A DNA stretch of 64,000 bases from Thermodesulfovibrionia bacterium (GTDB taxonomy: Bacteria; Nitrospirota; Thermodesulfovibrionia; UBA6902). How positions within the stretch are numbered: the first letter of the stretch is position 1; each line of letters begins with the position of its first letter. Positions 18,357 through 46,987 of this stretch are shown piece by piece. The notes under the pieces were generated by a model, which saw nothing but the letters and a program-made list of their open reading frames with translations, was not told where the DNA came from and did not search any database. The DNA lies in the NCBI GenBank assembly GCA_947259735.1, contig CAMYNN010000006.1, positions 4,998-68,997 of the forward strand, in the 5' to 3' direction. The position numbers and the translations under genes are program-made.

Positions 18357-18836
18357 GTGGATATAGGAATGGAGAAAAAATGCCGGAAAATTCTTGAGAA
18401 ATATTATAAAGAAGAAGGAAACGTCATCTCCATTCTGCAGGATATGCAGGAAGAATTTGGCTATATTCCTGATGATGCGGTGTACTGGTGTGCGAATGAA
18501 CTGAATATTCCTGCCAGTAATTTTTTTGGGGTTGCTACTTTTTATTCCCAGTTTCATCTGAAACCGAGAGGGAGGTATATCATAACGGCCTGTTGCGGGA
18601 CGGCATGCCACGTCAAGGGGGCTGATCCTATTATTCATCGCATGAGGGCCGATCTTGCCCTGGCAGAAGGTGAGACGACCACGTCGGATACCAATTTTAC
18701 ACTGGAAAGCGTAGCCTGTATCGGTGCATGCAGTATGGCCCCTGTTGTTAAAGTAAACAAGAGGATTTATGGAAATGTGACACCCGACAGAGCAACTGAA
18801 CTTATCGATGAATTCAACAACGAGAAGGGGAAGTAA
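18357..18836 (+). CDS. NuoE-like [2Fe-2S] thioredoxin-fold subunit of an NAD(P)-linked formate dehydrogenase/hydrogenase
   Basis: CCGTAC…CIGACSMAP motif typical of the NuoE/HoxE family. Confidence 0.85.
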   Translation: MDIGMEKKCRKILEKYYKEEGNVISILQDMQEEFGYIPDDAVYWCANELNIPASNFFGVATFYSQFHLKPRGRYIITACCGTACHVKGADPIIHRMRADLALAEGETTTSDTNFTLESVACIGACSMAPVVKVNKRIYGNVTPDRATELIDEFNNEKGK

Positions 18837-20634
18837 TGTGGCGGTAAAGAAGTCAGGGCAAAAATCTGCGCTAAAAAATCTGGAAATAAAAGTATGTGTC
18901 GGCACAGGCGGCCTCGCTGCCGGCAGCCAGGATGTTCTGGACAGGTTCGGGAAGCAGCTCAAGGCCCGGGGAATCAAAGCCGGCATCGCAAAGAAATGCA
19001 CTAAAAAAACGGGCTGCCGGGGGCTCTGTGCAAAGGACGTTCTGGTTGACGTTATCCGGAACGGCAAGAAATCAACCTATCAGTTTATCACAGTCGACAA
19101 GGTCAGCAGAATCATAAAAGAGCACGTTATGGAAGGCGTTCCTGTAAAAGACTGGCTTGTCGGTCCGGAATACGAGGCTTTTCACAGCAAGGGGACGAAG
19201 GTCCTTCTGAAGCAATGCGGAGAGATTGACCCTGAAGATATTGAGTCATATATAGAGTCAGGCGGGTACAGGGCAACGCTGAAGGCCCTGAAAATGAAGC
19301 CGGAGGCCGTTATAGATGTTATTAAAAAATCGGGTCTCCGCGGCAGGGGTGGAGCTGGATTTCCGACAGGCCAGAAGTGGGAGCTTTGCAGCAATGCTGA
19401 AGGGAGCCCCAAATACATTATATGTAATGCCGATGAAGGTGACCCCGGAGCATTTATGGACAGGTCCATTATTGAAGGGAACCCTCATTCTGTTTTGGAA
19501 GGATTGATCATCGGCGCCTATGCTTTCGGTGCATCCCGCGGTTATGTCTATATTCGCGCTGAATATCCTGTGGCCATTACCCGCCTGAAGCTTGCTATAA
19601 AAGAGGCAGAGAAAAAAGGCTTCCTGGGAAAAAACATATGCAAGCGAGGCTTTGACTTCGACATCCGGATCAAGGAGGGGGCCGGTGCATTTGTCTGCGG
19701 TGAAGAGACTGCTCTCATCGCCTCAATTGAAGGCGGACGCGGCATGCCACGTTCAAAGCCCCCTTTCCCGGTGTATCATGGACTGTGGGGGAAGCCAACG
19801 GTTGTCAATAATGTTGAAACGCTCTCAACGATTCCCCTGATCATCTTCAAGGGGGCCAAGTGGTTCTCTTCCATCGGCACGGAAACGAGCAAGGGAACCA
19901 AGGTCTTTGCCCTTACAGGAAAAATAAAAAACACAGGCCTGATCGAAGTGCCTATGGGAATTACTCTGAGAGAAATTATTTATGATATCGGCGGTGGATG
20001 CCCCGGGAACAGGGAATTTAAAGCTGTGCAGACAGGCGGTCCCTCAGGCGGCTGCATTCCTGCTTCCTATATTGATATGCCCGTAGATTACGAATCATTG
20101 CAGGAGATCGGATCCATGATGGGCTCTGGCGGAATGGTTGTCATGGACGATACGACCTGCATGGTCGACATGGCAAAGTTTTTCCTGGAATTTGCCCAGA
20201 ATGAGTCATGCGGCAAGTGCCTGCCCTGCCGGGTCGGCAATAAGCGACTCTTTGAGAGACTGAAGGATATTACGGAGGGAAAAGGCAGGGAAGGTGATAT
20301 CGAGTTCCTTCTGTCCCTTGGGGAAGACATAAAAATATCATCCCTCTGCGGACTTGGTCAAACATCCCCCAATCCTGTACTTTCTACTATTAAATACTTC
20401 AGAGATGAATACGAGGCGCATATACGGGAGCACCGGTGTCCGGCAGGAGTATGCCAGGCATTCAGGAAATATGTTGTCAATGCCGCTATTTGTAAAATGT
20501 GCGGAAAGTGCTTCAAAGAATGTCCGGCAGAGGCAATAACGTGGCAGAGAAAACAGCCGGCAATGATAAACAGAGACAAATGCATTCAATGCGGCACCTG
20601 TTATGATGTATGCCCGTTTCATGCAATACTATAA
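18808..20634 (+). CDS. NuoF-like NAD(P)H-binding FMN/[4Fe-4S] subunit with extra N-terminal and C-terminal Fe-S domains. The true start is probably GTG 18838.
   Basis: GRGGAGFPTGQKWE, CNADEGDPGAFMDR, and C-terminal 2x CxxCxxCxxxCP ferredoxin motifs. The ORF-track start overlaps the upstream gene by 29 nt. A GTG at 18838 follows an RBS-like GAAGGGGAAG. Confidence 0.85.
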   Translation: MNSTTRRGSNVAVKKSGQKSALKNLEIKVCVGTGGLAAGSQDVLDRFGKQLKARGIKAGIAKKCTKKTGCRGLCAKDVLVDVIRNGKKSTYQFITVDKVSRIIKEHVMEGVPVKDWLVGPEYEAFHSKGTKVLLKQCGEIDPEDIESYIESGGYRATLKALKMKPEAVIDVIKKSGLRGRGGAGFPTGQKWELCSNAEGSPKYIICNADEGDPGAFMDRSIIEGNPHSVLEGLIIGAYAFGASRGYVYIRAEYPVAITRLKLAIKEAEKKGFLGKNICKRGFDFDIRIKEGAGAFVCGEETALIASIEGGRGMPRSKPPFPVYHGLWGKPTVVNNVETLSTIPLIIFKGAKWFSSIGTETSKGTKVFALTGKIKNTGLIEVPMGITLREIIYDIGGGCPGNREFKAVQTGGPSGGCIPASYIDMPVDYESLQEIGSMMGSGGMVVMDDTTCMVDMAKFFLEFAQNESCGKCLPCRVGNKRLFERLKDITEGKGREGDIEFLLSLGEDIKISSLCGLGQTSPNPVLSTIKYFRDEYEAHIREHRCPAGVCQAFRKYVVNAAICKMCGKCFKECPAEAITWQRKQPAMINRDKCIQCGTCYDVCPFHAIL

Positions 20635-20739
20635 ATAAAGGGTCCCGGGGTTCAAGGGGCCGAGGGTTCAAGGGACAATAACCGTTCCTGAACCCAGCGG
20701 CACCTGGATCCAGTGAATCCTGATTTTTAGGAGGTTGTC

Positions 20740-23436
20740 TTGTCAAAAGACAAAATAAAAATAAAGATAAACGGTAAAAAGATATCGTGCAGTCAGGGAG
20801 ACACGATCCTTGAGGCTGCAAATAAAGCGGGGATTAAAATCCCCACGCTTTGTCACGATTACAGGCTTGAACCATACGGCTCATGCAGGTTTTGCAGTGT
20901 TGAGATCAGGGGAATGCAAAGGCTGCTTCCCGCCTGTACGACACCCGCCGCAGATAATATGGATATTTCCTCAGAAAGCGACACAGTCCAGAGGATAAGG
21001 AAGAGACTGGTGTCTCTCATGCTTTCCAATCACCCCAATGACTGCATGCGATGTGAAGCTGACGGTGACTGTTCACTGCAGGACCTTGCTTATGAATATG
21101 GTGTGGACGGCAGTGAATATGGAGGTGAGAAATGGGATCTGCCGATTCGGCAGGCAAATCCTTTTATAACCTACGAACCGAACAAATGCATTGTCTGCGG
21201 GAGGTGCGTAAGAATATGCAACGAAGTTGTGATGGCAGGGACCATAGATTTTACAGGCAGGGGATTCAATACTGTCCCTGATACGGCCTTCAGGACAGCG
21301 CGTACATTGTCAAACTGTGAATTTTGCGGCCAGTGCGTGTCTACCTGTCCTACGGGGGCGCTGACCGACAAAAAGGGAAGAGGCAAGGGCCGCGTTAAAG
21401 ACTTCAAAAAGGTCCGGACTACCTGTGGCTACTGCGGTACAGGCTGCAACTTCTTTTTAAATGTAAAAGATAATAAGGTTGTGAAGGTTACGTCCGATTA
21501 TAGCGGTCCGGTGAACAGGGGGAACCTGTGCATAAAGGGACGGTATGGGTATGATTTCATACATAGTCCTGACAGAATTACGAAGCCTCTCATCCGCAAG
21601 GGCAAAAAGTTTGTAGAGGTCTCATGGGATGACGCTCTTGATCTGGTTGCGAAGAAGTTCGGTGAAATATTAAAGAAACACGGCCCTGACTCGTGCGGTG
21701 CTTTTTCATCATCACGATGTACCAATGAAGAGAATTTCCTGCTCGCCAAATTTGTCAGAACGGTTTTCAAGACGAATAATGTCGATAACTGCGCTCGAGT
21801 CTGACACGCTCCGACTGTGGCCGGTCTGGCCACCAGCCTGGGAGCAGGTGCTGCAACTAATTCACTGGCCCAGATGCCTGAAATAGATACTCTCTTCCTG
21901 TTTGGTTCTAATCCTACGGAAGCCCATCCTATTGTCGCCATTTATCTGAAGAAGGCCCTGCGGAATGGTGCAAGGCTTATTGTTGGCGATCCTCGGCAGA
22001 CATGGATGGCAAAACGCGCCGATGTATGGCTCAACCTCCGCCCGGGCTCAAACATAGCACTTATAAACGGTCTCGTTCATGTGATACTAAAAAACGGGTG
22101 GGAGAACAAAGCGTTTATCAAGAAAAGGACCGAGGATTTTCAGGAGCTTAAAAAGCATGTAAAGAAATATGACCCTAAAACAGTCGAAAAACTTACCGGG
22201 GTTTCAAAAGATAAACTGACTGAAGCAGCCAGGCTGTATTCTCATGCGGACAAGGCAATGATCGTATACGGCCTTGGTGTTACAGAGCACAGGACGGGGA
22301 CAGAGAACGCAATGGCCATTGCTAACCTTGCCCTTGCCTGCGGTCACATTGGCAGACCTTCAACGGGTATCATGGCTTTGAGAGGGCAGAACAATGTCCA
22401 GGGGGCTTCCGATCTCGGACCCGCCCCGAACATACTCCCCGGATACCAGCCTGTTGTGAACCCCGATGTGCGGGAGAAATTCGAAAAGGCATGGGGTGTT
22501 CCCATTTCACCGAAAGTTGGACTCAAGTCTGTTGAAATGCTTGATCAGGCATGCGGCAGGACATTCAAGGGTCTCTATATTCTTGGAGAAGACCCCGCCC
22601 AGACCGATCCGAATTCCCACGAAGTCCGTCGGGCCCTGCAATCTCTCGATTTTCTCGTTGTTCAGGATATCTTCCATACAGAAACCACAAAATATGCCCA
22701 CGTTATTCTACCGGGCTCAAGCTTTGCTGAAAAGGACGGCACGTTCACAAACGGTGAACGAAGGGTGCAGCGTGTCAGAAAGGCCATTCGACCGCTGGCA
22801 GGAAAGGCGGACTGGCAGGTGATCTGTGAACTTGCTACCCGTATGGGCTATCCCATGAGCTATGCTCATCCGTCTGAAGTAATGGATGAAATTGCGAGTC
22901 TTACCCCGCAATATGGAGGTATAAGTTATGAACGTCTCGAAAAAGTGAGCCTCCAGTGGCCCTGTCCGACCAAGGACCATCCCGGGACAAAGACTCTGTA
23001 TACTGACCTGTTCTCGCGGCCGGGAGGCCTGGCAAAATTTATGGTCCTTGATCATAAGGGCTCGGGCGAAGTTCCGGACAGGGAATATCCTTTCGCGCTC
23101 ATAACCGGCCGTATCCGTGAACACTACAATAACGGTTCCATGTCCAGGAGGGTGGCCGGTATTATGGAACTTGTACCTGAAGAGCATGTCGAGATGAACC
23201 CGGAAGACGCAATGAAGTTGAAAATCAAGGACAATGACTGGTTGAAAGTGGCTTCACGAAGAGGCGTTATTAAAGTCAAGGCGAGAATTACAAAACGATC
23301 CCAAAAGGGAAACCTGTTTCTCACGTTTCACTTCCCGGAAGCCCTCTCGAATTTTCTTACCTCGGAGCACAGGGACCCCATAGCCGGTACGCCGGAATAC
23401 AAGTCCTGTGCAGTGCGGATAGACAAAGTGCAATAA
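20740..23436 (+). CDS. fdhA: Formate dehydrogenase catalytic (alpha) subunit, a selenocysteine-containing molybdopterin enzyme. Read-through of in-frame TGA at 21802-21804.
   Basis: The two ORF-track pieces (20740-21804 and 21817-23436) are in the same frame. The junction reads NVDNCARV-TGA-HAPTVAGLATSLGAGA, which is the conserved FDH active-site context where U or C sits. The N-terminus has 2Fe-2S and 4Fe-4S domains, and the remainder is the molybdopterin oxidoreductase domain. Confidence 0.85.
21805..21845 (+). ncRNA. Bacterial SECIS-like hairpin immediately 3' of the UGA codon
   Basis: GUGGCC-GGUCU-GGCCAC gives a perfect 6-bp stem with a GGUCU apical loop, 13 nt after UGA. The loop resembles the E. 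coli fdhF SECIS apex (GGUCUG). Confidence 0.5.
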
Positions 23437-24333: not shown

Positions 24334-25920
24334 TTACAGAACTTTTTCTTCTATCCCATATTTCTTTATTTTGTACCCTATCTGCCGTGGAGTGATGCCG
24401 AGAAGCCGGGCTGCCTTCGCCTGGACCCATCCTGTTTTTTCCAGTGCCTCTATGATATTTGATTTTTCGATTTCCCCCACACTGGCAGTCAATGAAGACG
24501 ACTGACTGCTGCTTTTGATGCGGCGGAGGCTGAGAGAAACAGGGAGGTCCGATGCAGTAAGGCGTTCTGCTCCGGACATAATTACCAGCCGTTCAATGGT
24601 GTTTTCAAGCTCCCTCACATTACCGGGCCAGTTGTAACTGAGGAAAACCTGAAGAGCGCTTTTATCAAGGTGAACGGACCGGTTATTCTCAGAGTTAAAT
24701 TTTTTCAGAAAATAATCGATAAGAACCAGGGTGTCTTCTCCTCTCTCACGGAGGGGGGGGAGGAACAGAGGTATTACATTCAGGCGGTAATAGAGGTCCT
24801 CCCTGAATTTCCCGTGCGAGACAAAACTTTCAAGGTTCCTGCTCGTTGCCGCAACGATTCTGACATCAACTTTCATGTTCTTTTCGCTGCCGACACGCTC
24901 GAATTCCCTTTCCTGAAGGACACGGAGTATTTTCGGCTGGAGGGTTATGGGGAGGTCCCCTACTTCATCAAGGAAAATGGTCCCCTTGTGTGCGAGTTCG
25001 AATTTGCCCTTCCGCGATGCAATCGCCCCTGTGAAAGCTCCTTTCTCATGCCCGAACAGCTCTGATTCAAGGAGCCCCTCAGGGATGGATGCACAATTGA
25101 ATTTAATGAAGGGCCCTTTGCTTCTCGGGCTCATATAGTGAATTGCCTTTGCGATCAGCTCCTTCCCGGTCCCGCTCTCACCTCGTAGAAGTACTGTTGC
25201 CTTCGTGGGGGCAACGCGGTGGACAGCCTCAAACACCTCCTGCATCCTTGACGAATCGCCGATCACGTTATCGATACTGTATTTGCCCTTCAGTTCCCGT
25301 TTTAAGATTTCTTTCTCTTTTTCGACTTCTTCATAACTTTCCCATAGCTTGACAAACTGGGCTATCAATGACGCGACAATTTTCAGGACCCTGAGGTCAT
25401 CATCAACGCTGCCCTGTTTTGTTGAATAGATCCTGTCAACGCTGAGCACTCCAAGCGCCTCATTTTTAAGCATAATCGGGATGCAAAGGAAAGATATCCC
25501 GTCTTTTTCCGGACGTGATCCTGTTCTATTCAGAAACAACGGTTCCTGTCCGATATTGGGAATAACCATGGGTATCCTCTTTTCCAGTACCCTGCCGACG
25601 ATGCCTTCTCCAATTCGATATTTTCCTTTTTCGATATTATGTTTTGTAAGACCGTGAGCGGCTACAATACGGAGTTCTCCGGAGTTCTGATCAAGAAGAA
25701 ACACGCATCCCCTCTGCATTTCGAGAAGACTCCCGAGGGTTGACATCACTGAAAGAAGGTTTTTTTCGAGGGCAAAGGAGGTAGTCAGTACTTTGCTCAC
25801 TTCAAGGATCGCAGTAAGCTCCCTGTTTTTCCTGATTGTCAGTTCTGCTTTCTTCCCGCTATCTTTCCCGCTTTTCATAGGGTCCACCTGTTTTGTTGAC
25901 CAGTTTATTTCATGGTACAT
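24334..25920 (-). CDS. Sigma-54-dependent transcriptional activator with N-terminal GAF sensor domain (FhlA-like architecture)
   Basis: GAF region, then AAA+ sigma-54 interaction domain ([26 protein letters not shown]), then C-terminal Fis-type HTH. Confidence 0.85.
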
Positions 25921-26373
25921 GTAAGGTATGTCAATAGGAACGCAAAAGAATATGTAATAGTAACATCAGGTTAAGGCAGATATCAATACGACGGTATACC
26001 TGTACGTCATTGGTTCGCATATGAAATGAAAATGATTCCATATAGAGTGGCATTCCTTCCGCAATTGTTTATTTCGTCTGTGAAGGAGTATAATAAAAGC
26101 TGAAATGCAGTCATCTACGTTTGTAGTTTTTTCGACGAAGCATGCCAATGAATCGGTTGAGAAAGGTCAAATTATCAGGAAAAACAGCTAATGGCTTTTA
26201 TTGCCGGTTCATGATTCGCTTGACATAGCGCTGTATATTTCTTAAATTAATACTAGTATAAATAATGCGTATGTATGCACCCATATGTTCAGTATTCCCT
26301 GTCCCGATTCAGGTCCTGGATAAACTATATGGATTTTTTTCAATGTGTAAATATAATTAACGGAGTTTTTTAA

Positions 26374-28788
26374 ATGGCAAAAGGTTGTTGTGATACAGGA
26401 AGAGATGACAGAATTAAGAAGTACAATCTTGCAGACTGGCAGATACTCAATCCCGATATCAAGGCTTTCAGTCCCGACGATATTTTATTTGCTCCCCCGT
26501 ACATCAGGAAGCGTAAAAAAGGAATAAATCTGCTGATAGATCCCAAATCCCCTAACTGGATCAGCATAAATAATACGGGAGCTGAAATTATCAAACTGTG
26601 CGATGGCAGGCATACATTGTCGGAAATTCAGGATTCCATATGTAATAAATACGGTCTGACAAACAGGAAGAAAGTCAAAGAAGAGATTTCCCAGTTTATC
26701 AGTGCAGTGGGGTTACTTGAATTTGTATCCGATACGGAATATAACAGGCCGGAATATAAAGGAAGAAGCAGCGCGATTGCTCCCCGTAAACTGGATGAAC
26801 TCTGGCTTTATTATACGATGGCATGCAATCTGCGGTGCAAGCATTGTCTTGTAGATGCAGGAAAGGTCCTGAAAAAGGAATTAACGAACGACGAGTTCAA
26901 AAAGGTTGTGGACGAGGCAATAAAACTTGGCGTCAAGAGGTTCTATATTACCGGTGGGGAACCTTTTATCAGGGCAGGTATTTTTGACCTTATTCACTAC
27001 ATCACCAAAACGAAGAGGCGTGACCTTATTGTTCTTACAAATGCGACTCTTTTCGACGATGAAAAGATAGCTGCACTCAAAAAGGTCATGAGCCCGAAAC
27101 TTCTGGTGCAGGTGAGCCTGGAGGGACCGACTGCCGAAATCCATGATAAACTGCGTGGCAAAGGAAGCTTTGACAAGACGGTGGATGGCATTCAGAGGCT
27201 TATGGGCATAGGAATTACACCCATTGTTTCGACGGCCATAAGCAAACTGAATGAAAAAGATATTGCAAAGACCTCCCGGTTTCTTTCAAAGCTTGGTATT
27301 CAGGAACATAATGTGCTCTGGATGCATGCGAAGGGACGGGGTGCCGATAATTTAAATGAATTATATGTGCCTTCGGAAAATATAGCAAAGGCCATGAAAA
27401 AGGTGAAGAAGGAATACAAGGAGCAGGAAGTTATTTTTGATAATGTGGAGTCCTTGAAAGTCCGGGTGAGAACCAAGAGGGGAAGGAAAAATGACCTTTG
27501 CAATAATTGTTTTGAAAAGATCTGCGTTAATTCTGATGGACATATATACCCCTGTGCCTCACTGAATGGAGACAAAAATTTTGATGCAGGTTCGGTGCGC
27601 AAAAAGTCTTTAAAGGATATATGGTTGAATTCAAAGGTTATGGACAGGGGGAGGGAAAACAGTGTACAGGACAAAGCGGAGTGCCGGGAGTGTTATCTAG
27701 AATACTTTTGCGGCGGCGGATGCACTTCCCATAGCTATTATGCATCTGAAGTGGATAGGGGGAAAGGTTCCATAACTGCAGTCGATCCGTACTGTTCAAC
27801 GTACAAGTCAATGTTTGAGGACATCATCTGGGAACTTGCTTCCGAGGGGGTGGCCCCGCAGAACGGCAAAGGCTACATGGCTCCCCTTGTTTATAATGCA
27901 ATGGATTCGAAACTCCCCGGGCATCTTGGCGCCGGAATTGAATCTATTGATAAAAACTTTGAAGTGGGATGCTACCATTGTTCCTGCGTCCTTTCCGTTG
28001 ATGTTGAGGATGATGAGGAAGTGTGCAAGCCTGAAATCAAGGGGCATGTTACGAAGACAGTAAAGAAGAAATTCTCAAAAGCCGCGTATAATCCTGTTGC
28101 TGACTATTACTGTCCCACGGGATATAATCCGAAGGACCTTTCCCATATCCCGAATGAAGTGCTTGATGTATCCTATGGATGCGGAAATCCTGCTGCACTT
28201 GCAGATATCAAAAAGGGTGAGACGATTGTTGACCTCGGCGCAGGAGGCGGTATTGACTGTTTTATTGCTGCAAAAAAACTGGGCAGGAAAGGCAAAGTCA
28301 TAGGCATCGACATGACCGATGAAATGCTGGAGAAGGCCCGGGAGAGTGCGAAAATCGTTGCAAAAGCCCTGGGTTACGATGTAGTTGAATTCAGGACCGG
28401 TAACATCATGGAACTCCCCGTTGACAGCGATTCTGTTGACCTTGTCATATCAAACTGTGTTATCAACCTTACAGAAGACAAAGCTAAAGTACTGGATGAA
28501 ATATATCGAATATTAAAACCGGGTGGACGGTTTATCATTTCAGACATCGTTTCCGACAAACCTGTCCCGGGATATTTAAAAAGAGACAAGGAGTTATGGA
28601 ACGCGTGCCTTTCGGGAGCACTGACGGACAGGCAGTTTACAGAAGTTGCCCAAAACGCGGGATTCTCGGGTGTTGAATTGACAAATAACTATCTTTATAA
28701 AAAGGTGGAATTTATCGAGTTTTATTCAATTACCCTGAAGGGCAGCAAACCCCGGAAAGTCACTTGCGGGGCCTGTGCCTGTAGCTAG
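26374..28788 (+). CDS. Tri-domain fusion: PqqD-like RRE + radical SAM/SPASM maturase + ArsM-like SAM-dependent methyltransferase
   Basis: Residues ~20-110 are PqqD-like (…WISINNTGAEIIKLCDGRHTLSEIQ…ISQFISAVGLLEF). The CNLRCKHC CxxxCxxC motif follows. SPASM cysteines are present (CNNCFEKICVNSDGHIYPC…CRECYLEYFCGGGC). The C-terminal ~220 aa has the ArsM hallmarks YGCGNP, VDLGAGGGIDCF, ISNCVINL, ACLSGA and a Cys-rich CGACACS tail. Confidence 0.8.
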   Translation: MAKGCCDTGRDDRIKKYNLADWQILNPDIKAFSPDDILFAPPYIRKRKKGINLLIDPKSPNWISINNTGAEIIKLCDGRHTLSEIQDSICNKYGLTNRKKVKEEISQFISAVGLLEFVSDTEYNRPEYKGRSSAIAPRKLDELWLYYTMACNLRCKHCLVDAGKVLKKELTNDEFKKVVDEAIKLGVKRFYITGGEPFIRAGIFDLIHYITKTKRRDLIVLTNATLFDDEKIAALKKVMSPKLLVQVSLEGPTAEIHDKLRGKGSFDKTVDGIQRLMGIGITPIVSTAISKLNEKDIAKTSRFLSKLGIQEHNVLWMHAKGRGADNLNELYVPSENIAKAMKKVKKEYKEQEVIFDNVESLKVRVRTKRGRKNDLCNNCFEKICVNSDGHIYPCASLNGDKNFDAGSVRKKSLKDIWLNSKVMDRGRENSVQDKAECRECYLEYFCGGGCTSHSYYASEVDRGKGSITAVDPYCSTYKSMFEDIIWELASEGVAPQNGKGYMAPLVYNAMDSKLPGHLGAGIESIDKNFEVGCYHCSCVLSVDVEDDEEVCKPEIKGHVTKTVKKKFSKAAYNPVADYYCPTGYNPKDLSHIPNEVLDVSYGCGNPAALADIKKGETIVDLGAGGGIDCFIAAKKLGRKGKVIGIDMTDEMLEKARESAKIVAKALGYDVVEFRTGNIMELPVDSDSVDLVISNCVINLTEDKAKVLDEIYRILKPGGRFIISDIVSDKPVPGYLKRDKELWNACLSGALTDRQFTEVAQNAGFSGVELTNNYLYKKVEFIEFYSITLKGSKPRKVTCGACACS

Positions 28789-28827
28789 GCGGTATTAAAA
28801 TATGAATAAGAAACGAGGTAGGAATTT

Positions 28828-30312
28828 ATGAGAGTCAGCTTAGTAAATGCTCAGGTTTTAGACGGCAATAATGTTGTACCCCCTCTGGGACTGATGTACA
28901 TTGCAGCAGTTTTGGAAAAGGCGGGCCACAAGGTCCAGATATTTGATTCCGACCCTGAATACCAGGACACCATGATGCAGGAAATCAAGGATTTCAACCC
29001 TGATCTGATCGGGTTGAGTTTTTTAACGGTGGCCTATCAAAGGGCATTCAATCTTGCGAAGGCCCTGAAGAAAGAACTTCCCGATGTGACCTATTGTGCC
29101 GGCGGAGTACATCCAACGGTAAAGCCGAAAGAAACATTGACGGAATTTGACGTTGACTTTGTCGTTGTGGGAGAAGGGGAAGCCACGATTGTTGAAGCCT
29201 GTGAAAAGCTGGAGAAAAAAGAAGGAGTTGACGGTGTGAACGGAGTTATGTTCCGTAAGGATGGAGAAATTGTAACTACGCCTCCTCGGGAAATGATTAA
29301 AGACCTGGACTCCATTCCTTTTCCTGCGCGGCACTTGATTGATATGGCGCCATACCTCATGCCACCTGGAATTATCAGGGGGTATGCAGAAAAGAACCAG
29401 ACGACTATTGTTACAAGCAGGGGCTGTCCCTTTAAATGTATTTACTGCGGCAGTCATAATATCTTCGGAAGAAGGACCAGAAGGCGTTCTGTAAAAAATG
29501 TTGTTGATGAAGTAGAACATCTGCATAAAAACTTCGATATAAAGGGAGTCTACTATTGTGATGATACATTTACCCTCAGCTCCAAGTGGGTAAAAGAATA
29601 CTGTCATGAATTAAAGAAGAGAAATCTGAATGTCAAGTGGGCATGCCAGTCAAGGGTCGACCAGACAGACCCTGAGCTCATGAAGCTGATGAAAGAATCA
29701 GGGCTTGTGCAGCTTGATTTTGGCGTTGAAAGCGGTTCTGAAAAAATACTGAAAGTGCTGGGCAAGGGCGGTGCAGGTGACAGGACTTCACAGATAAAGA
29801 AATCCTTTAAACTGTGCAAGGAGCTTGATATCAGGACCCTTGCAACATTTATTATCGGCAATCCCGAAGAGACAAAAGATGACATAGACCAGAGTTTCCA
29901 GGTGGCAAAGGAAATCAATGCTGACTACACGGCATTCTATTTTCTCACCCCTTACCCGGGAACTGACATATATGACATGGCTATAGAAAACGGATGGCTT
30001 GACCCGAACCTGCCTTTCTCCGAGATCTGGGCACACAGGCAGCCGGAGCTCCCTTTAATGGCTATTACCTTTGGAAAGGAAGAGCTCAGAGATATCCGCA
30101 GACATCTGCAGAACCAGTTTTTTACAAGGAATTATCTCAGGAGTTCGGGGAATATCAGTTTCTACTCAATACTGATCAGCATAATCTTCAAGCATCCCGG
30201 GGTAATCCTGGACTGTCTGGGTAAATTTATCAGGACCCGCAGGATAGACTATATTGTAGAGACCCTCAACGCGGAGTACTGGCGGATGAAAAAGTACGAA
30301 GGCGCCGGATAA
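28828..30312 (+). CDS. B12-binding-domain radical SAM protein (class B rSAM, putative methyltransferase)
   Basis: N-terminal cobalamin-binding Rossmann region, then GCPFKCIYC radical SAM motif. Starts 40 nt after the fusion gene. Confidence 0.8.
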   Translation: MRVSLVNAQVLDGNNVVPPLGLMYIAAVLEKAGHKVQIFDSDPEYQDTMMQEIKDFNPDLIGLSFLTVAYQRAFNLAKALKKELPDVTYCAGGVHPTVKPKETLTEFDVDFVVVGEGEATIVEACEKLEKKEGVDGVNGVMFRKDGEIVTTPPREMIKDLDSIPFPARHLIDMAPYLMPPGIIRGYAEKNQTTIVTSRGCPFKCIYCGSHNIFGRRTRRRSVKNVVDEVEHLHKNFDIKGVYYCDDTFTLSSKWVKEYCHELKKRNLNVKWACQSRVDQTDPELMKLMKESGLVQLDFGVESGSEKILKVLGKGGAGDRTSQIKKSFKLCKELDIRTLATFIIGNPEETKDDIDQSFQVAKEINADYTAFYFLTPYPGTDIYDMAIENGWLDPNLPFSEIWAHRQPELPLMAITFGKEELRDIRRHLQNQFFTRNYLRSSGNISFYSILISIIFKHPGVILDCLGKFIRTRRIDYIVETLNAEYWRMKKYEGAG

Positions 30313-30332
30313 GGAACAATTCAAGAAACAAA

Positions 30333-30372
30333 AAAAAGGAGCGTTGCCAGGCAACGCTCCTTTTTTTTGTTT
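30333..30372 (+). terminator. Rho-independent terminator
   Basis: AAAAAAAAGGAGCGTTGCC-AGGCAACGCTCCTTTTTTTT is a perfect 11-bp stem followed by a T-run. Confidence 0.8.
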
Positions 30373-30577
30373 CTCCATACTTACTTTATTAAGCACGTCA
30401 ACGGGTTATAATAAAATATTAAAATGGTTACCCACTTGCTGATTTTGACTCCATGTTCAGGGTTTCAAGAAACTTCACTTCTCCCTATCTTCTTGGCCTC
30501 TCTTCCCCGCACTGACGGCTACTGTTAGGGGATCATGCAAATCATACTGTGCAGCATATGAAAAGATCTGAGACTCT

Positions 30578-32995
30578 ATGAGAAAAAATACACTATTCTC
30601 TATTACACTCATTATCGCTATAATGACTGGTCCGACGAAATTCTCTTTTGCGGTTCCTGCAGCCCCGGGTCTATTCGACTTGAGGCAGCCCGACAGCACT
30701 GTTTTCAGAGCACAGCAGCAGGGTGATGAGTGGAACAACAGGGTTGAGACCGCACATGGCTATACTGTGAAAAAACACATTGATGGATACTGGAAATATA
30801 TCTCCCGTTTTGAAAGAGACATCCCCCGTTTCAGCAACGTTCATGCTGACAATAACCCTCCTGCAGGAATTGCCAGGCATCTTCGTCCGGGCATTTTAAC
30901 GAATCCCCGTGAAGGGAGGGATTTGCACCCTGACGGCGCTCCATCCTCTTCTTCATCAGGATTAAAGAGCACCTCTTCTGTTTCAGGAGCGGCTGCTCCG
31001 ACAGGAACATTTAACGGGGCGGTTCTGTTTATTCTGGCAGAGTTCAATGACAGGTCCGGTGTATATACGGAAACGGATTTCGGAATACTTATTTCGAACA
31101 ATATCAATGATTATTTTGACAAGGCATCCTACGGCAGTGTTAATCTGTTTTCGGCCAGTGAAACTTCTGGAACAGCTGATAATGGTGTTGTTGGATGGGT
31201 AAATGTGGGAGGTGATCACCCCGATACGGGAAGTGCCACGGGGACGAAGAACAGGCGCTTGGCCAGGGATGCCATTATTGCCGCTGACCCCTTTATTAAT
31301 TATGCCTCCTATGATTCCGACAGTGACGGGTACGTTGATGCCGATGAACTGGCCGTTGTTGTAATTGTTGCCGGATTTGAGAGGGCATACAGCGCTTCCT
31401 ATACGCCAAGTGTCTGGGGTCATAAGTGGTCTCTTGGCTGGGGCGGAGTGAATGCACCTCGCGTTGACGGGGTGCGTGTCGGCCATGACCACGGCGGTAC
31501 GGGTGGCTATGCTCAGTTTGGAGAAATACACCGGAGCAATGCTTTGAACCAGCATCAGGCAACCATGGGGATTATGGTGCATGAACTGGGGCATCTCATT
31601 TTCGGACTTCCTGACTTGTACGATACCGACGGGTCCTCAGAAGGTATTGGTGTTTTTGGAATCATGGGCTCAGGCAGCTGGGGGAGGGCGTTATCGGATC
31701 CCTATTCCGGAGAGACGCCGGTATTGCCTTCAGCCTGGACTCGATACGATCGTGGCTGGTCAAGCGCATCTGTTTTTTCGGGCTATGCGGCGGTCACAGC
31801 CGCCGGAGCATTATCAGCGACGGGATCAAACTCAGCGTACAAACTTCTTACGTCACTTTCAAATGAATATTTTATTGTAGAAAACAGACAGCCTGTGGGA
31901 TATGACCGGGGTCTGGAAGTTCAGTTGGGAGCCGGATTTGGCGGCCTGGCTATCTGGCATATAGATGAAGACACAATTTCAAGCAAAATAAGCACAAACT
32001 CAGTTAACACAAGTGAATGTTACCCCGGCGGCCCGTCCTGTGATCCCAATCATTACGGCGTAGCCATTGTCCAGGCAGACAATCAATGGCACCTTGAGAA
32101 AGACTCAAACAGGGGCCAGGCCGTGGATTTGTGGAATTCGGGCAATAAAACGAGCTTCGATTCAGTTTCTGCTCCGAATAGTGATCTGTACAGTGGTGCT
32201 CAGAGCTATGTAAGCGTAACGAATATAAGTGCGGCAGGAACGACAATGACTGCTGCATTCAATGCCTATTTACTGGAAATCAACAGGACGGGATCAGGCA
32301 GCGGTACGGTGACGTCCAGTCCTGCCGGGCTCGACTGTGGAAGTAACTGTTTAGAGTATTACGAAAGCGGGACCGTTGTCGTACTGACGGCAACAGCCGG
32401 CGCGGAGTCAGTTTTTGCAGGGTGGAGTGGAGATCCTGACTGCTCTGATGGCTCCGTTGAAATGAGTGACGACAGGACGTGCACAGCAACCTTTGATGTA
32501 CTGCAATATCAGTTAAATACCGATGTAAGTCCTGCCGGCAGTGGGACCATAAGTCCTGACTGTTCATCTGGTTGCCTGTATGACAGCGGCACAATAGTCA
32601 CGTTAACTGCGACAGAGAGCGGCGGCTATTTTTTTGATGCCTGGTCAAACTGTGATTCTCCGTCAGGTAATGTCTGCACAGAGACAATGGATGAAAGCAT
32701 TACCATTACGTCCGGGTTTCTGGGATGCTTTGAGCCTGTCCGGATTGATTACACGACACCAGTGTATTTCAAGACTCTCCAGGCTGCCTATATTGCAGCT
32801 GTTGACGGGGACGTTATCCAGACCCGGGGCGTATCTTTTGTTGGAGACCTGAATGTAAACCGTCAAATATCGGTTACTCTTAATGGTGGATATAATTGCG
32901 ATTATTCAGCTGTTACGGGAACATCCGGCTTTAATGCCACGATGACCGTTGGTGAGGGAACAATTACGATCGGAGAATACATTTTCGGGAACTAG
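30578..32995 (+). CDS. Secreted M6-like (HExxH) zinc metalloprotease with C-terminal InlB-type B-repeat domains
   Basis: Signal peptide, HELGH zinc motif in a large catalytic domain, and repeated GSGTVTS…GLDCGS.C…Y.SGT.V.LTA…F.GWSG modules. High Gly/Ser/Thr content. Confidence 0.65.
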   Translation: MRKNTLFSITLIIAIMTGPTKFSFAVPAAPGLFDLRQPDSTVFRAQQQGDEWNNRVETAHGYTVKKHIDGYWKYISRFERDIPRFSNVHADNNPPAGIARHLRPGILTNPREGRDLHPDGAPSSSSSGLKSTSSVSGAAAPTGTFNGAVLFILAEFNDRSGVYTETDFGILISNNINDYFDKASYGSVNLFSASETSGTADNGVVGWVNVGGDHPDTGSATGTKNRRLARDAIIAADPFINYASYDSDSDGYVDADELAVVVIVAGFERAYSASYTPSVWGHKWSLGWGGVNAPRVDGVRVGHDHGGTGGYAQFGEIHRSNALNQHQATMGIMVHELGHLIFGLPDLYDTDGSSEGIGVFGIMGSGSWGRALSDPYSGETPVLPSAWTRYDRGWSSASVFSGYAAVTAAGALSATGSNSAYKLLTSLSNEYFIVENRQPVGYDRGLEVQLGAGFGGLAIWHIDEDTISSKISTNSVNTSECYPGGPSCDPNHYGVAIVQADNQWHLEKDSNRGQAVDLWNSGNKTSFDSVSAPNSDLYSGAQSYVSVTNISAAGTTMTAAFNAYLLEINRTGSGSGTVTSSPAGLDCGSNCLEYYESGTVVVLTATAGAESVFAGWSGDPDCSDGSVEMSDDRTCTATFDVLQYQLNTDVSPAGSGTISPDCSSGCLYDSGTIVTLTATESGGYFFDAWSNCDSPSGNVCTETMDESITITSGFLGCFEPVRIDYTTPVYFKTLQAAYIAAVDGDVIQTRGVSFVGDLNVNRQISVTLNGGYNCDYSAVTGTSGFNATMTVGEGTITIGEYIFGN

Positions 32996-33037
32996 GAGTA
33001 TGGTTCTCCCCGCCGTCTGACCTTCCCTGCGTCCGGT

Positions 33038-33874
33038 CTAAAACCCCTGCACAGGAGTCGGAGTAAAGGTCAAAATGAAAATTACGAGTGACACCCAGCC
33101 CATAAACTTTCTTTTTCTGTCAAGCTGAATGTGGGGAAAGACAACTGGTGGATGTCTGTACCCGAGAATGATCATCAATATGGCCCATATTAACCAGCCC
33201 GGCCAGAAAATAATGCCAAGAACTACTAAAACAGGTAGAGTTCCTTTCGAAATCCACGCATGCTTTTCACCGAAGAGTGCGTAAATAATATGCCCGCCGT
33301 CAAGTTGACCGATGGGAAGTAGATTCAATGATGTGACTAAAAGCCCGATCCATCCGGCGAAAGCAACGGGATGGAGTATTACGTCATATGATTCAGGATC
33401 AACATTCAATACAATTGTAGAGAGAAAGTTGAACAATAGTGAACTCCCGAAGGCAAGACCTTCCTGCAGTTCGCCTGCAGGCCTTACCTCTGACATGTGC
33501 AGGCCTGCAACACAGGCAATGACGGCAATTATGAATCCGCCAATCGGTCCTGACGCGCCGATGTCGATAAGAGATCTCCTGTCCGGTATTGGCGGCTTCA
33601 TTTTTATAACTGCTCCGAAGGTCCCGATTATTGAAGGGGCGGGAATGAAGTATGGAAGTGTTGCGGATACATGATGTTTTCGTGATGCCAGATAATGAGA
33701 CATTTCATGGGTGAGAAGAATAAAAAGCAGGGTTAATGAGAAAGGCAGTCCGAGATAAATTTTTTCAGGTTCTTCCCATGGGATAATTCCGTTAAGCAGT
33801 GCACCGGCACTCATTGTGGTCAAAAAAGTCAGAACAAAAAGCAGAATGTGTATGCGGGTCAGTTTATGAGGCAT
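33038..33874 (-). CDS. Site-2 protease family (M50) intramembrane metalloprotease
   Basis: HEMSH in TM2, LDGG motif (IGQLDGGHI), multi-TM topology. Confidence 0.7.
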   Translation of the reverse strand: MPHKLTRIHILLFVLTFLTTMSAGALLNGIIPWEEPEKIYLGLPFSLTLLFILLTHEMSHYLASRKHHVSATLPYFIPAPSIIGTFGAVIKMKPPIPDRRSLIDIGASGPIGGFIIAVIACVAGLHMSEVRPAGELQEGLAFGSSLLFNFLSTIVLNVDPESYDVILHPVAFAGWIGLLVTSLNLLPIGQLDGGHIIYALFGEKHAWISKGTLPVLVVLGIIFWPGWLIWAILMIILGYRHPPVVFPHIQLDRKRKFMGWVSLVIFILTFTPTPVQGF

Positions 33875-34349
33875 CGTATTTTTTCTGGTATTTCGTTGCC
33901 AGGGGTTGAATTATAAAATAGCTTATCACTGCGGATATGGTACCTATGAGAAATGAGCCCACAAAAAAGGACTTTATAAGAGGCATCAATTCCTTGACAA
34001 GAAGAATGAAATTGTCCAGGTCTGTCAGCTTAGTCATGACACCAGTAAGGCTTACACTTCCCCAGTCCACTTCAGGCAAAACCTGTTTTATCCCCATCAG
34101 TTTTGCGCCGGTCCAGACACAGAAAGAGGAGATGGGGACAATTGTCCACGGGTTATTAACGCTGACCCCTACGACTGCAACCAGCTTGTTTAAGCGAAGA
34201 ATCCAGGCCAGAAACAGGGCGAGAATATAATGAAGGCCCAGCAAAGGAGAGATCCCCATGAAAACTCCCATGGCAAATGCAAGGGCGATGCGCTGGGGCG
34301 TGTCTTTTACATTGAAGATGCTTCTGAATGTATCTTTAAAGTAAGCCAT
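33864..34349 (-). CDS. DUF2062-family membrane protein
   Basis: Small polytopic protein. Overlaps the M50 protease start by 11 nt, suggesting co-transcription. Confidence 0.45.
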   Translation of the reverse strand: MAYFKDTFRSIFNVKDTPQRIALAFAMGVFMGISPLLGLHYILALFLAWILRLNKLVAVVGVSVNNPWTIVPISSFCVWTGAKLMGIKQVLPEVDWGSVSLTGVMTKLTDLDNFILLVKELMPLIKSFFVGSFLIGTISAVISYFIIQPLATKYQKKYDAS

Positions 34350-45457: not shown

Positions 45458-46987
45458 TTACCCATCGTTCATCGCAAAGAAAGGAGCGTGGTTGGACGTA
45501 AATATGGGAGGGTTTCTCCTGAGTATTTCCGAGACAGCACTCTGCTTCCTGAATTCATCCTGGAGAAACTTCCGTACCTCGCCTCTGTGCCATCCTCCGG
45601 GATGTGTGAACCCCGAATAGAGAGACAGGTCTCCCTCATAGAAACTGATCGTCTCATAGTCATTTATTCCCGGTCCTGAAAGGGGCATGTTAAATAGTGC
45701 AAGATTCAGAAACCCGATTTCATTTTGATGTCTCACCACGAACTCAAGGGTGTTCCGTGCATTCTGCAACGTCTCCGGCGGTGTTCCGAACAGCAGATAA
45801 ATGTACGTGGCAATGCCTGCCCTTTTGAGTGTTTTTAAAACGAGAGATGCCCTTTCGAGGCTGATCCCTTTTTCCATACTGTCAAGAACTCCCTGGTCCC
45901 CTGATTCAAGGCCGAGCTTCAGCATCACACATCCTGATTCCTTAAGGGCCATGCAAAAATCGATATCGGTCAGAAGGCTGTTTATCCTCGCAAAGCCATA
46001 CCATGGAACTCCGGGAGGGCTGTCAGCCAGACGCTTGAGAAGCGCGGTGCTGACGGCGTTGTCCAGAAGGTGAAGAAGTTCCGGCCTTGTTGTACTTATG
46101 AGCGAGCCAAGGTCATCTATTACTTTGTCAACAGGCTTTGGAGCATAGGGGTTATCTTCGGCCCGCTCCGGGCAGAAAGAACATCTGTTCCAGTAGCATC
46201 CGCTTGAAGCACTGTAGGGAAGAATAAATCCGGGAGAAATATAATCATTGAGGGGCAATGAGTCGTAAGCGGGCATGAATATTTTTTTTTCAGGCATGTT
46301 AATCCCCATCACAGAAAGAAGCGGTTCTTCCCCCGGTCCGGACACAAGCAGATCAATAAGTCCTGTAAAGGGATTCCCCCATGTCGGTCTTTTCGTCCAG
46401 GACGTAACAAGCCCTCCGCCGAGGATAATTTTTATCTCCGGAAAGTTTTGACGCACGAAACCGATCATTGCAAAGGTGCAGAGCGCCTGGCTCAGGTAAT
46501 TCATTGAGAAGCCGATGTGCGAGAGGCTCCTTTCCTGTATCAATGAAAGCAGGCGCTCCGAAAAAAAGGAATAAAAAGGATTCATTTCCGGTTTTTCAGA
46601 GGCCCTGATAAGATCGGCACTTCTTAAGGGGGAAAGCTCGTGGTGCCTGTAATTGGCGAGCCCTGGTGTTGTGCCGCGGGTGGCGGACTTTTCAAGTGCC
46701 CGGTTCAGGTCAATGACGGCCCGTTTGTAGCGGTCGATATTCTGATAGGTGCTCCAGCCTTTCAGTGAGCGGTAATTCTTGGACGCGTTGCGAAAAGCAC
46801 GGTCAGTCCACCTGTCGGAGGGAGAGGAAGTCAGCCGCTGGGCATTCCCTGTCATGTAGAGAAGGGACTCTATGTTTGCATCCAGAATAGTGCAGTCTAT
46901 TCCGTGACCTTTCAGTGCACCTGCAAGTTGTGCAATACCGGCCGGGGGCTCAGAGGGCTTTGCAACGGGGGGGTAAACTAGTATCAT
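45458..46987 (-). CDS. B12-binding-domain radical SAM protein
   Basis: N-terminal cobalamin-binding fold, then SGCYWNRCSFC radical SAM motif. Confidence 0.75.
   Translation of the reverse strand: MILVYPPVAKPSEPPAGIAQLAGALKGHGIDCTILDANIESLLYMTGNAQRLTSSPSDRWTDRAFRNASKNYRSLKGWSTYQNIDRYKRAVIDLNRALEKSATRGTTPGLANYRHHELSPLRSADLIRASEKPEMNPFYSFFSERLLSLIQERSLSHIGFSMNYLSQALCTFAMIGFVRQNFPEIKIILGGGLVTSWTKRPTWGNPFTGLIDLLVSGPGEEPLLSVMGINMPEKKIFMPAYDSLPLNDYISPGFILPYSASSGCYWNRCSFCPERAEDNPYAPKPVDKVIDDLGSLISTTRPELLHLLDNAVSTALLKRLADSPPGVPWYGFARINSLLTDIDFCMALKESGCVMLKLGLESGDQGVLDSMEKGISLERASLVLKTLKRAGIATYIYLLFGTPPETLQNARNTLEFVVRHQNEIGFLNLALFNMPLSGPGINDYETISFYEGDLSLYSGFTHPGGWHRGEVRKFLQDEFRKQSAVSEILRRNPPIFTSNHAPFFAMNDG

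Follow-up and report, generated by a model that had tools for sequence, protein, structure and literature searches.

What would an enzyme make that combines, in one polypeptide, the front half of a peptide maturase and a methyltransferase of the arsenic-methylating type? The question is raised by a 64,000-nucleotide (nt) stretch of DNA from a Thermodesulfovibrionia bacterium (assembly GCA_947259735.1, contig CAMYNN010000006.1, positions 4,998 to 68,997 of the forward strand), referred to here as the window and numbered from its own first letter. On its forward strand, at 26374-28788, lies a single uninterrupted open reading frame (ORF) of 804 amino acids (aa), in which a PqqD-like domain resembling the recognition element (RRE) of enzymes that act on peptides that are made on ribosomes and modified after translation (RiPPs) is followed by a radical S-adenosylmethionine (SAM) core, a SPASM domain and an ArsM-type methyltransferase domain. 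A gene for a second radical SAM enzyme, with a B12-binding domain, lies directly downstream. An earlier reading of the letters alone, below called the original prediction, had left two answers side by side, a new class of RiPP or an organoarsenical or metalloid pathway. Of these two the organoarsenical one is favoured here: judging from sequence comparisons, there is a probability of roughly one half that the fusion and the B12 gene form an anaerobic pathway building an organoarsenical or other metalloid-carbon compound, and not a RiPP locus.

The fusion is intact and widely conserved, and both it and its B12 partner are undescribed. Among 5.8 billion proteins, a search brought up more than 120 clusters with the same domain set, at 100% coverage and 65-99% identity, whose source labels, where named, are Nitrospirae or Thermodesulfovibrionia. 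The full architecture was also found in several dozen 50%-identity clusters by an exhaustive HMMER search of 1.8 billion representatives, and of the 879 clusters (E <= 1e-30) from a protein search seeded with a Scalindua homologue, the 120 best listed have both a radical SAM and a methyltransferase domain throughout. A genome scan taking one genome per species yielded 80 fusion loci, which fall into two clades. Clade A (L001-L037), to which the window protein belongs, consists of Thermodesulfovibrionia/Nitrospirota loci, with 63-85% identity; clade B (L038-L080, 43 loci) consists of full-length relatives with 37-43% identity, in Scalindua and other anammox bacteria, Elusimicrobia, Nitrospinota, Acidobacteria, Wallbacteria, Dadabacteria and archaea. 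Five features set clade A apart: it has no glycosyltransferases and no ArsM C-terminal domain, and it has a complete SPASM domain, an invariant MAKxCC extension at the N-terminus and the B12 partner. The profile scores given below, together with conservation in hundreds of relatives, are far beyond chance.

The original prediction had named three ways in which it could prove wrong, namely that the domains are not intact, that the homologues are ordinary sulfatase maturases of the anSME type, or that the fusion is an artefact. None of these was found: the RRE-like and methyltransferase domains are intact, the homologues are not anSME-type maturases sitting beside sulfatases, and an assembly artefact is ruled out by the presence of the full-length fusion in many genomes, in the protein and genome searches alike. 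Its remark that the modules had not been seen joined before holds only with a qualification: the architecture is abundant in public databases, where it appears under generic names only ("methyltransferase domain-containing protein", "PqqD family peptide modification chaperone", "Radical-SAM methyltransferase"). Neither NCBIfam nor Pfam has a dedicated model for the fusion, and a full-text literature search found no paper describing it.

Pfam and NCBIfam scans and the translation agree with the coordinates and motifs originally predicted for the 804-aa protein. Above their gathering scores are PqqD (aa 54-110, 35.7 bits against a cut-off of 23.4), Radical_SAM (aa 147-304, 91.7 bits), SPASM (aa 376-441, 36.0 bits) and Methyltransf_31 (aa 612-763, 124.9 bits). 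The protein opens with an extension of 30 residues (26374..26463), of the pattern MAKGCC...R..R...Y....W, which includes a vicinal cysteine pair and is specific to the Thermodesulfovibrionia clade; M1, A2, C5, C6, R10, R13, Y17 and W22 are invariant in the clade A alignment, while C5 and C6 are matched in just 2% of the relatives with about 40% identity. An AlphaFold2 model of the fusion protein, built from 33 sequences, has a mean predicted local distance difference test score (pLDDT) of 83 and a predicted template modelling score (pTM) of 0.77, and the extension has low pLDDT in it. The PqqD-like domain proper (PF05402; aa 37-114, 26482..26715), identified by its Pfam match, the model and fold matches, is a winged helix modelled with pLDDT above 90 as three or four beta-strands followed by three helices, the RRE-like fold expected from the original call; its P60 and W62 are invariant across all the architectures described below. 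The radical SAM core (PF04055; aa 142-330, 26797..27363) carries the CX3CX2C motif as CNLRCKHC, with C151, C155 and C158 100% conserved in both clades. In the SPASM domain (PF13186; aa 372-478, 27487..27807) all seven cysteines (C379, C394, C437, C440, C446, C450 and C474) are invariant in the clade A alignment, while the pattern is partly degenerate in clade B. Alignment also brings out a motif, V-G-C-Y-H-C-S-C-V-L at aa 531-540 (27964..27993), with the cysteine pair C536 and C538.

The C-terminal part (aa 556-792, 28039..28749) is an ArsM-type As(III) SAM methyltransferase domain, its best NCBIfam match being the arsenite methyltransferase subfamily PRK11873 (251 bits, aa 574-776). The translation contains the motifs YGCGNP (C603), DLGAGGG (aa 620-626; the GxGxG motif of a class I SAM-binding fold), SNCVINL (C695) and ACLSGA (C745), and ends in a cysteine-rich tail, TCGACACS (28759..28785; CGACACS in the motif list), which is variable among relatives. 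In alignment, C603, C695 and C745 fall on the YGCG, SNCV and ECLGGA motifs of Cyanidioschyzon merolae ArsM (CmArsM), and C580 stands where ArsM has its first Cys(-Cys) motif. We take the CmArsM cysteines to be Cys44, Cys72, Cys174 and Cys224, the latter three at the YGCG, SNCV and ECLGGA positions. All four cysteines are 100% conserved across both clades in 41 diverse sequences, so that the domain is as complete in its SAM and cysteine motifs as had been predicted, and these four have been described as the As(III)-binding motif of ArsM (bioRxiv 10.1101/2024.02.01.577332). Solved ArsM/AS3MT structures (5evj, 4fr0, 6cx6, 8xt7) have 33-38% identity to this part and superimpose on the AlphaFold2 model at 2.2-3.1 A, the values for 5evj, 4fr0 and 6cx6 being 35-38% and 2.2-2.9 A. 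Clade B proteins retain the extra C-terminal domain of ArsM, of about 90 residues.

The radical SAM module is found in several other combinations. In P0252 and P0257 the order is reversed, with ArsM N-terminal and the same radical SAM/SPASM module C-terminal; in P0251, P0267 and P0275 the fusion carries an additional DUF5714 domain similar to the metal-binding selenoprotein MbdU; in P0266 and P0277 the same PqqD-radical SAM-SPASM module is joined to TusA sulfur-carrier domains; and in P0249, P0255, P0285 and P0286 it stands alone and ends right after the cysteine-pair motif. In alignment the consensus V-x-x-(Y/F)-H-C-x-C-V-L closes the module in every version, whether TusA-fused, reverse-order, ArsM-fused or standalone, and C538 is invariant across a second alignment. 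A cysteine motif at the C-terminus of ArsL, RCCLKC, has been shown to bind As(III), and the formation of the C-As bond depends on it (bioRxiv 10.1101/2024.02.01.577332); by analogy with this tail we infer that the C536/C538 pair may bind a metalloid. That the module is fused to ArsM in both orders argues for an obligatory functional coupling of the two. The other fusion partners, TusA and the MbdU-like DUF5714, are carriers of thiophilic atoms and as such would also speak for the organoarsenical reading.

The partner gene (28828..30312, forward strand) begins 39 nt past the stop codon of the fusion, behind a GAGGT ribosome-binding site, and encodes a radical SAM enzyme of 494 aa with an N-terminal B12-binding domain (PF02310, 92.7 bits; PF04055, 87.2 bits) and the motif CPFKCIYC. 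In 29 of the 37 clade A loci this gene is the direct downstream neighbour of the fusion, most of the others being truncated contigs, and at 74-88% its identity exceeds that of the fusion itself; judged by this conservation, the B12 radical SAM gene that the original prediction had placed beside the fusion is a true partner of it in clade A. With BchE, HpnJ and the PhpK-type P-methyltransferases the partner shares an N-terminal B12-binding domain and a radical SAM core, from which cobalamin use is predicted, but it lies far below every NCBIfam equivalog cut-off (BchE 224 bits against 481, HpnJ 213 against 578). Its other matches are ApyD (184 bits) and a lipid-biosynthesis family of B12 radical SAM enzymes, and the nearest solved structure is that of AprD4. 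Identity with ArsL was considered and rejected, the ArsL model NF040542 giving 67 bits against a cut-off of 450 and the C-terminal cysteines being absent.

Paralogues of the partner, 65-67% identical to it, occur in two further loci, L082 (5254-9952) and L084 (1-9954), as arrays of two to four B12 radical SAM genes adjoining a class III aminotransferase gene and a gene for a protein of about 670 aa without a Pfam match, with a ketoacyl synthase gene in L082; these arrays possibly belong to a lipid-related Nitrospirota pathway. Within the window a second radical SAM gene (45458-46987, reverse strand; 509 aa), with a faint B12-binding match, lies about 15 kilobases (kb) downstream in an unrelated context.

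The surroundings of the fusion in clade B bear on arsenic. Neighbours were compared in all 80 loci by tblastn and de novo clustering. A PHO4/PiT oxyanion transporter is encoded in 14 of the 43 clade B loci, often 38 nt upstream (it is also present in three clade A loci, there with a PhoU_div gene). TIGR04282, named by NCBI an "arsenosugar biosynthesis glycosyltransferase", occurs in 11 of the 43, at 192 bits against a cut-off of 134, and TIGR04283, the second glycosyltransferase family that NCBI names for arsenosugars, was found in all four loci tested (226-245 bits against 182). DUF547 and VTT/DedA-like genes are each present in eight clade B loci, a MerA-like flavoprotein gene in five, a cellulose-synthase-like GT2 gene in ten, DUF3179 in nine and TlpA in five. 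Taken together, 26 of the 43 loci have at least one of PiT, TIGR04282, the small GT2 family (including TIGR04283 members), DUF547, VTT and MerA-like genes. DUF547, VTT and MerA-like genes also accompany ArsS cassettes. No ArsS-like radical SAM gene was found within about 8 kb in the clade B loci, and, given the arsenosugar-type neighbours, the fusion therefore seems to hold the place that ArsS and ArsM have in the known cassettes.

One elusimicrobial locus, L077, has its fusion gene in an arsenosugar-type cassette, and a few kb upstream of this (951-5496) are genes for a MerTP-like transporter, an MNIO maturase of the bufferin type (BufB, 360 bits) and an HvfC-like protein.

In the pathway that we propose, cysteine thiolates would hold As(III): those of the four ArsM cysteines, of the HCxC pair and perhaps of the CC pair at the N-terminus. 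Methylation with SAM would fall to the ArsM domain, while the radical SAM module would cleave a second SAM and make one more C-As bond, either through addition of the 5'-deoxyadenosyl radical to arsenic, as in ArsS, or through the joining of a substrate radical to the arsenic bound on the thiolates. The co-transcribed B12 radical SAM enzyme would then tailor the carbon part by methylation or rearrangement; in clade A this tailoring enzyme would replace the glycosyltransferases of clade B, and the clade A product would therefore probably be different from the classical arsenosugars. In our reading, the fusion would add a third type, so far undescribed, to the radical SAM enzymes of organoarsenical biosynthesis.

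The two known types invite comparison. Like the ArsS and ArsM pair (TIGR04167, NF038099), the fusion couples a radical SAM enzyme to ArsM; a natural ArsS-ArsM fusion is also known (P0294; 379 bits on TIGR04167 against 300, its ArsM part 229 bits on PRK11873), and in clade B the fusions adjoin TIGR04282 and TIGR04283, both above cut-off. Unlike ArsS, the window module is of the SPASM type with a PqqD-like N-terminal domain, not of the DUF3641 type, and the Pfam and NCBIfam scans gave no match to TIGR04167 or PF12345 (DUF3641) for the window's fusion protein, whereas P0294 matches both models; the window clade also differs from the ArsS and ArsM cassettes in having no glycosyltransferases, in having a B12 radical SAM partner and in an ArsM part without its C-terminal domain. 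In the arsinothricin route ArsL makes the C-As bond and ArsM then methylates the product (bioRxiv 10.1101/2024.02.01.577332). The window module resembles ArsL (NF040542) in also ending in a conserved cysteine pair, and the partner shares with ArsL the layout of B12 domain and radical SAM core, the ArsL model aligning weakly over aa 19-355 of it; the differences are that there is no RCCLKC tail and no arsQ-like permease, and that the fused module is a SPASM enzyme.

Several observations weigh against the organoarsenical reading. The window and clade A have no arsenic-resistance genes and no TIGR04282 or TIGR04283 members in the regions examined, which in the window, annotated through a 99%-identical contig, were about 16-39 kb and 41-62 kb for the resistance genes; the arsenic context is therefore borrowed from relatives of about 40% identity, so that the support which the organoarsenical half of the original prediction gains from gene neighbours comes from those relatives. 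The PRK11873 score of 251 bits sits slightly under the 263-bit whole-protein cut-off, and the other ArsM models are far below theirs, though the ArsM domain of the genuine fusion P0294 scores about the same on PRK11873, which suggests that a sub-threshold score may be normal for a fused domain. The usual ArsM C-terminal domain is missing in clade A, where the protein ends about 12 residues past the core, and the substrates of ArsM-family enzymes also include Se, Te and Sb. The partner has its closest paralogues in unrelated contexts, and the homologues fused to TusA give a hint that sulfur may have been the concern of the ancestral chemistry. Finally, the PqqD/RRE-like domain, which marks peptide substrates in known radical SAM/SPASM enzymes, is conserved, and the closest solved relatives of the N-terminal half are the RiPP maturases CteB, SkfB and SuiB.

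The last two points lead to an alternative that we consider unlikely: a peptide- or protein-modifying, RiPP-like system with its precursor encoded elsewhere, in which the peptide is docked by the PqqD domain and cross-linked, or modified in some other way, by the radical SAM/SPASM module, while the ArsM-like domain methylates its Cys or Sec or installs and methylates arsenic on it, and the B12 enzyme C-methylates it. It accounts well for the N-terminal 450 aa, which match the whole CteB/SkfB/SuiB architecture. A search of Protein Data Bank sequences aligns CteB (5wgg) with aa 49-457, across RRE, core and SPASM, and this part of the model gives fold matches to SkfB and SuiB (the latter over 473-485 columns) and also to anSME, ChlB and PqqE. 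With CteB, SkfB, AlbA and SuiB the fusion thus has in common the order RRE-radical SAM-SPASM, similarity over about 400-480 residues and the full seven-cysteine SPASM domain, and the PqqD match is above its gathering score with an RRE-like fold in the model. B12 radical SAM C-methyltransferases are common tailors of RiPPs, and ApyD is among the matches of the partner. The best NCBIfam radical SAM match of the fusion is likewise a sactipeptide maturase family, StsB, but at 161 bits against a cut-off of 625, and the other RiPP-maturase families are as far under theirs (AlbA 109 against 850, PapB 93 against 340). These enzymes also differ from the fusion in having neither its ArsM domain nor its HCxCVL motif, and the methyltransferase keeps all its arsenic-binding cysteines, for which a peptide methyltransferase has no need.

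Against a RiPP locus speaks the lack of a precursor gene, no conserved candidate having been found near the gene pair. Short ORFs were clustered at 12-120 aa around the pair in 38 loci, at 60-100 aa in clade B, and at 15-90 aa between genes in the 80 loci. No conserved small ORF emerged within about 8 kb in the 80 loci of the two clades; there were only shadows of coding regions (antisense or out of frame) or families confined to at most four close relatives, one of which is the translation of a conserved -10 promoter region. The two candidates put forward originally, of 31 aa (26268-26360) and 29 aa (26106-26195), do exist as ORFs, but neither has a counterpart in any other locus, and the 29-aa ORF lies upstream of the likely operon promoter. 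The protease that had been offered as a possible leader peptidase is, as set out below, not part of the locus.

Another possibility, which we regard as improbable, is metalloid or chalcogen detoxification or trafficking: ArsM would methylate As(III), Se, Te or Sb for volatilisation, and the radical SAM module would carry out some other reaction on a thiophilic atom, for instance inserting sulfur or selenium or cleaving the C-As bonds of methylarsenicals under anoxia. The canonical ArsM cysteines would serve here as well, the radical SAM module has close homologues in which TusA takes the place of ArsM, and MerA-like, TlpA-like and MerTP-like genes lie near some relatives. The habitat also fits, Thermodesulfovibrionia having been reported to dominate a high-arsenic aquifer well (bioRxiv 10.1101/2024.10.03.616553). 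A plain ArsM, however, needs no radical SAM partner, no arsR, acr3 or arsC adjoins the fusion in the contexts examined, and the occurrence of both fusion orders, together with the tight linkage of glycosyltransferases and a B12 radical SAM gene, suggests that a larger molecule is being assembled.

Peptide and arsenic might also belong together, and this we think quite improbable. Arsenic, or another thiophilic metalloid, would be installed on a ribosomal peptide or protein, the docked peptide being encoded elsewhere or being the fusion's own conserved N-terminal tail; the SPASM module would make the C-As bond by sactionine-like chemistry, with thiolate-bound As(III) taking the place of the cysteine sulfur, and the ArsM domain would methylate the arsenic. 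If this were true, it would yield the first RiPP, or the first post-translational modification, to contain arsenic.

A metalloid-independent small-molecule or lipid pathway, in which a recruited ArsM-like domain methylates some nucleophile, such as a thiol, on a lipid or cofactor while the carbon skeleton is built or rearranged by the two radical SAM enzymes, would suit the best family matches of the partner (BchE, HpnJ and the lipid-biosynthesis B12 radical SAM family), the aminotransferase and ketoacyl-synthase genes beside its 65-67% paralogues and the many membrane proteins (VTT, DUF547, GT2) among clade B neighbours, but we hold it to be very unlikely, As(III)-binding cysteines and extra cysteine pairs that stay invariant over about 60% divergence being hard to explain without a thiophilic substrate, and PiT transporters and glycosyltransferase families named for arsenosugars lying in the neighbourhood.

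As for the expression of the gene pair, a strong terminator had been predicted at its end, and a perfect, bidirectional-looking intrinsic terminator is indeed found at 30322..30375 (forward strand), with a hairpin of -36 kcal/mol (z = -10 against shuffles) between A8 and T8 tracts. A sigma-70-like promoter candidate of the operon, weakly indicated by a consensus scan, lies at 26220..26248 (forward strand; TTGACA, 17 nt, TAAATT), and relatives carry TTGTGA, 17-18 nt and TATAAT at the equivalent place. No Rfam match to a cobalamin or SAM riboswitch was found in the 5' leader, the only hits being hairpin-like noise at the terminator. Relatives also share a conserved block some 110-150 nt upstream of the fusion gene, TTGTGAATTTT...TGTATAAT. 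Another, TTGATA, 18 nt and TA(C/G)TAT, is conserved before the regulator gene described next, at 25957-25986 (reverse strand) in the window and also in L001, L002, L018 and L037, and resembles the sigma-70 promoter of that gene. The conserved intergenic blocks look like sigma-70 promoters, one for each of the divergent genes.

That regulator gene (24334..25920, reverse strand), divergent from the fusion and 453 nt away, encodes an activator of the NifA family with Pfam GAF, Sigma54_activat and HTH_8 domains, which passes the NifA equivalog TIGR01817 (584 bits against 529); its start may be 14 codons later, as annotated in the 99%-identical contig CAMYJE010000030.1. No nif genes were found in its examined context. 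It is adjacent and divergent in only 12-13 of the 37 clade A loci, and is best described as a clade-specific neighbour and a candidate regulator of the operon. The window does have a sigma-54-like candidate, TGGCATTCCTTCCGCA, 326 nt upstream of the fusion start. No GG-N10-GC (-24/-12) element, however, is conserved among the 13 loci with the activator, four of which have none at all, and the NifA upstream activating sequence (TGT-N10-ACA) was not found in the intergenic region of the window, so that a sigma-54 promoter for the fusion gene is not supported. On the far side of the regulator, at 18357-23436 (forward strand), is an operon for NADH-dehydrogenase 51K-like, 2Fe-2S thioredoxin-like, iron-sulfur and molybdopterin oxidoreductase proteins, which resembles a formate dehydrogenase and is not conserved beside the fusion gene in other genomes.

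Downstream of the terminator, at 30578-32995 (forward strand), the predicted M6-like protein is present as described, an M6-domain protease of 805 aa with a signal-peptide-like N-terminus, the motif HELGH and a TIGR03296 score of 147 bits against 110.8. Its gene has partial matches in just two of the 80 loci. In contig CAMYJE010000030.1 the B12 gene is followed directly by an M50 protease gene, with no M6 gene, and the nucleotide identity between the two contigs, 99.2% up to the stop codon of the B12 gene at 30312, is nil from 30313 to 32929, 75% from 32930 to 33951 and 98.5% thereafter. Since identity breaks exactly at the B12 stop codon and the M6 gene is missing from a near-identical contig, the protease lies outside the system, and, as it is also missing from nearly all relatives, a role as leader peptidase is ruled out. 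The segment 30313-33951 is strain-variable, the M6 gene being an insertion and the M50 protease gene (33038-33874, reverse strand) a 75%-identical allele. Of the regulated biosynthetic locus that had been pictured, the B12 partner thus stands, the activator is found in about a third of the clade A loci, and the protease falls away.

To our knowledge, only two radical SAM enzymes are known to make C-As bonds: ArsS, which adds an adenosyl group in arsenosugar synthesis, and ArsL, which adds a 3-amino-3-carboxypropyl group in arsinothricin synthesis. If the organoarsenical reading is true, the fusion would be a third, evolutionarily independent type, built on the SPASM/RRE scaffold of a peptide maturase and hard-wired to its own methyltransferase. 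The HCxCVL motif and the alternative TusA, ArsM and DUF5714 partners suggest a general design, in which a radical SAM module acts on an atom delivered by a fused, cysteine-based carrier. Counts of arsM in metagenomes as "arsenic methylation/volatilisation" presumably include these genes, whose function is probably different. The family is widespread in strict anaerobes, from the Thermodesulfovibrionia of the subsurface and groundwater to marine anammox Scalindua, Elusimicrobia and archaea, and the gene pair is a concrete candidate for the origin of complex organoarsenicals under anoxia.

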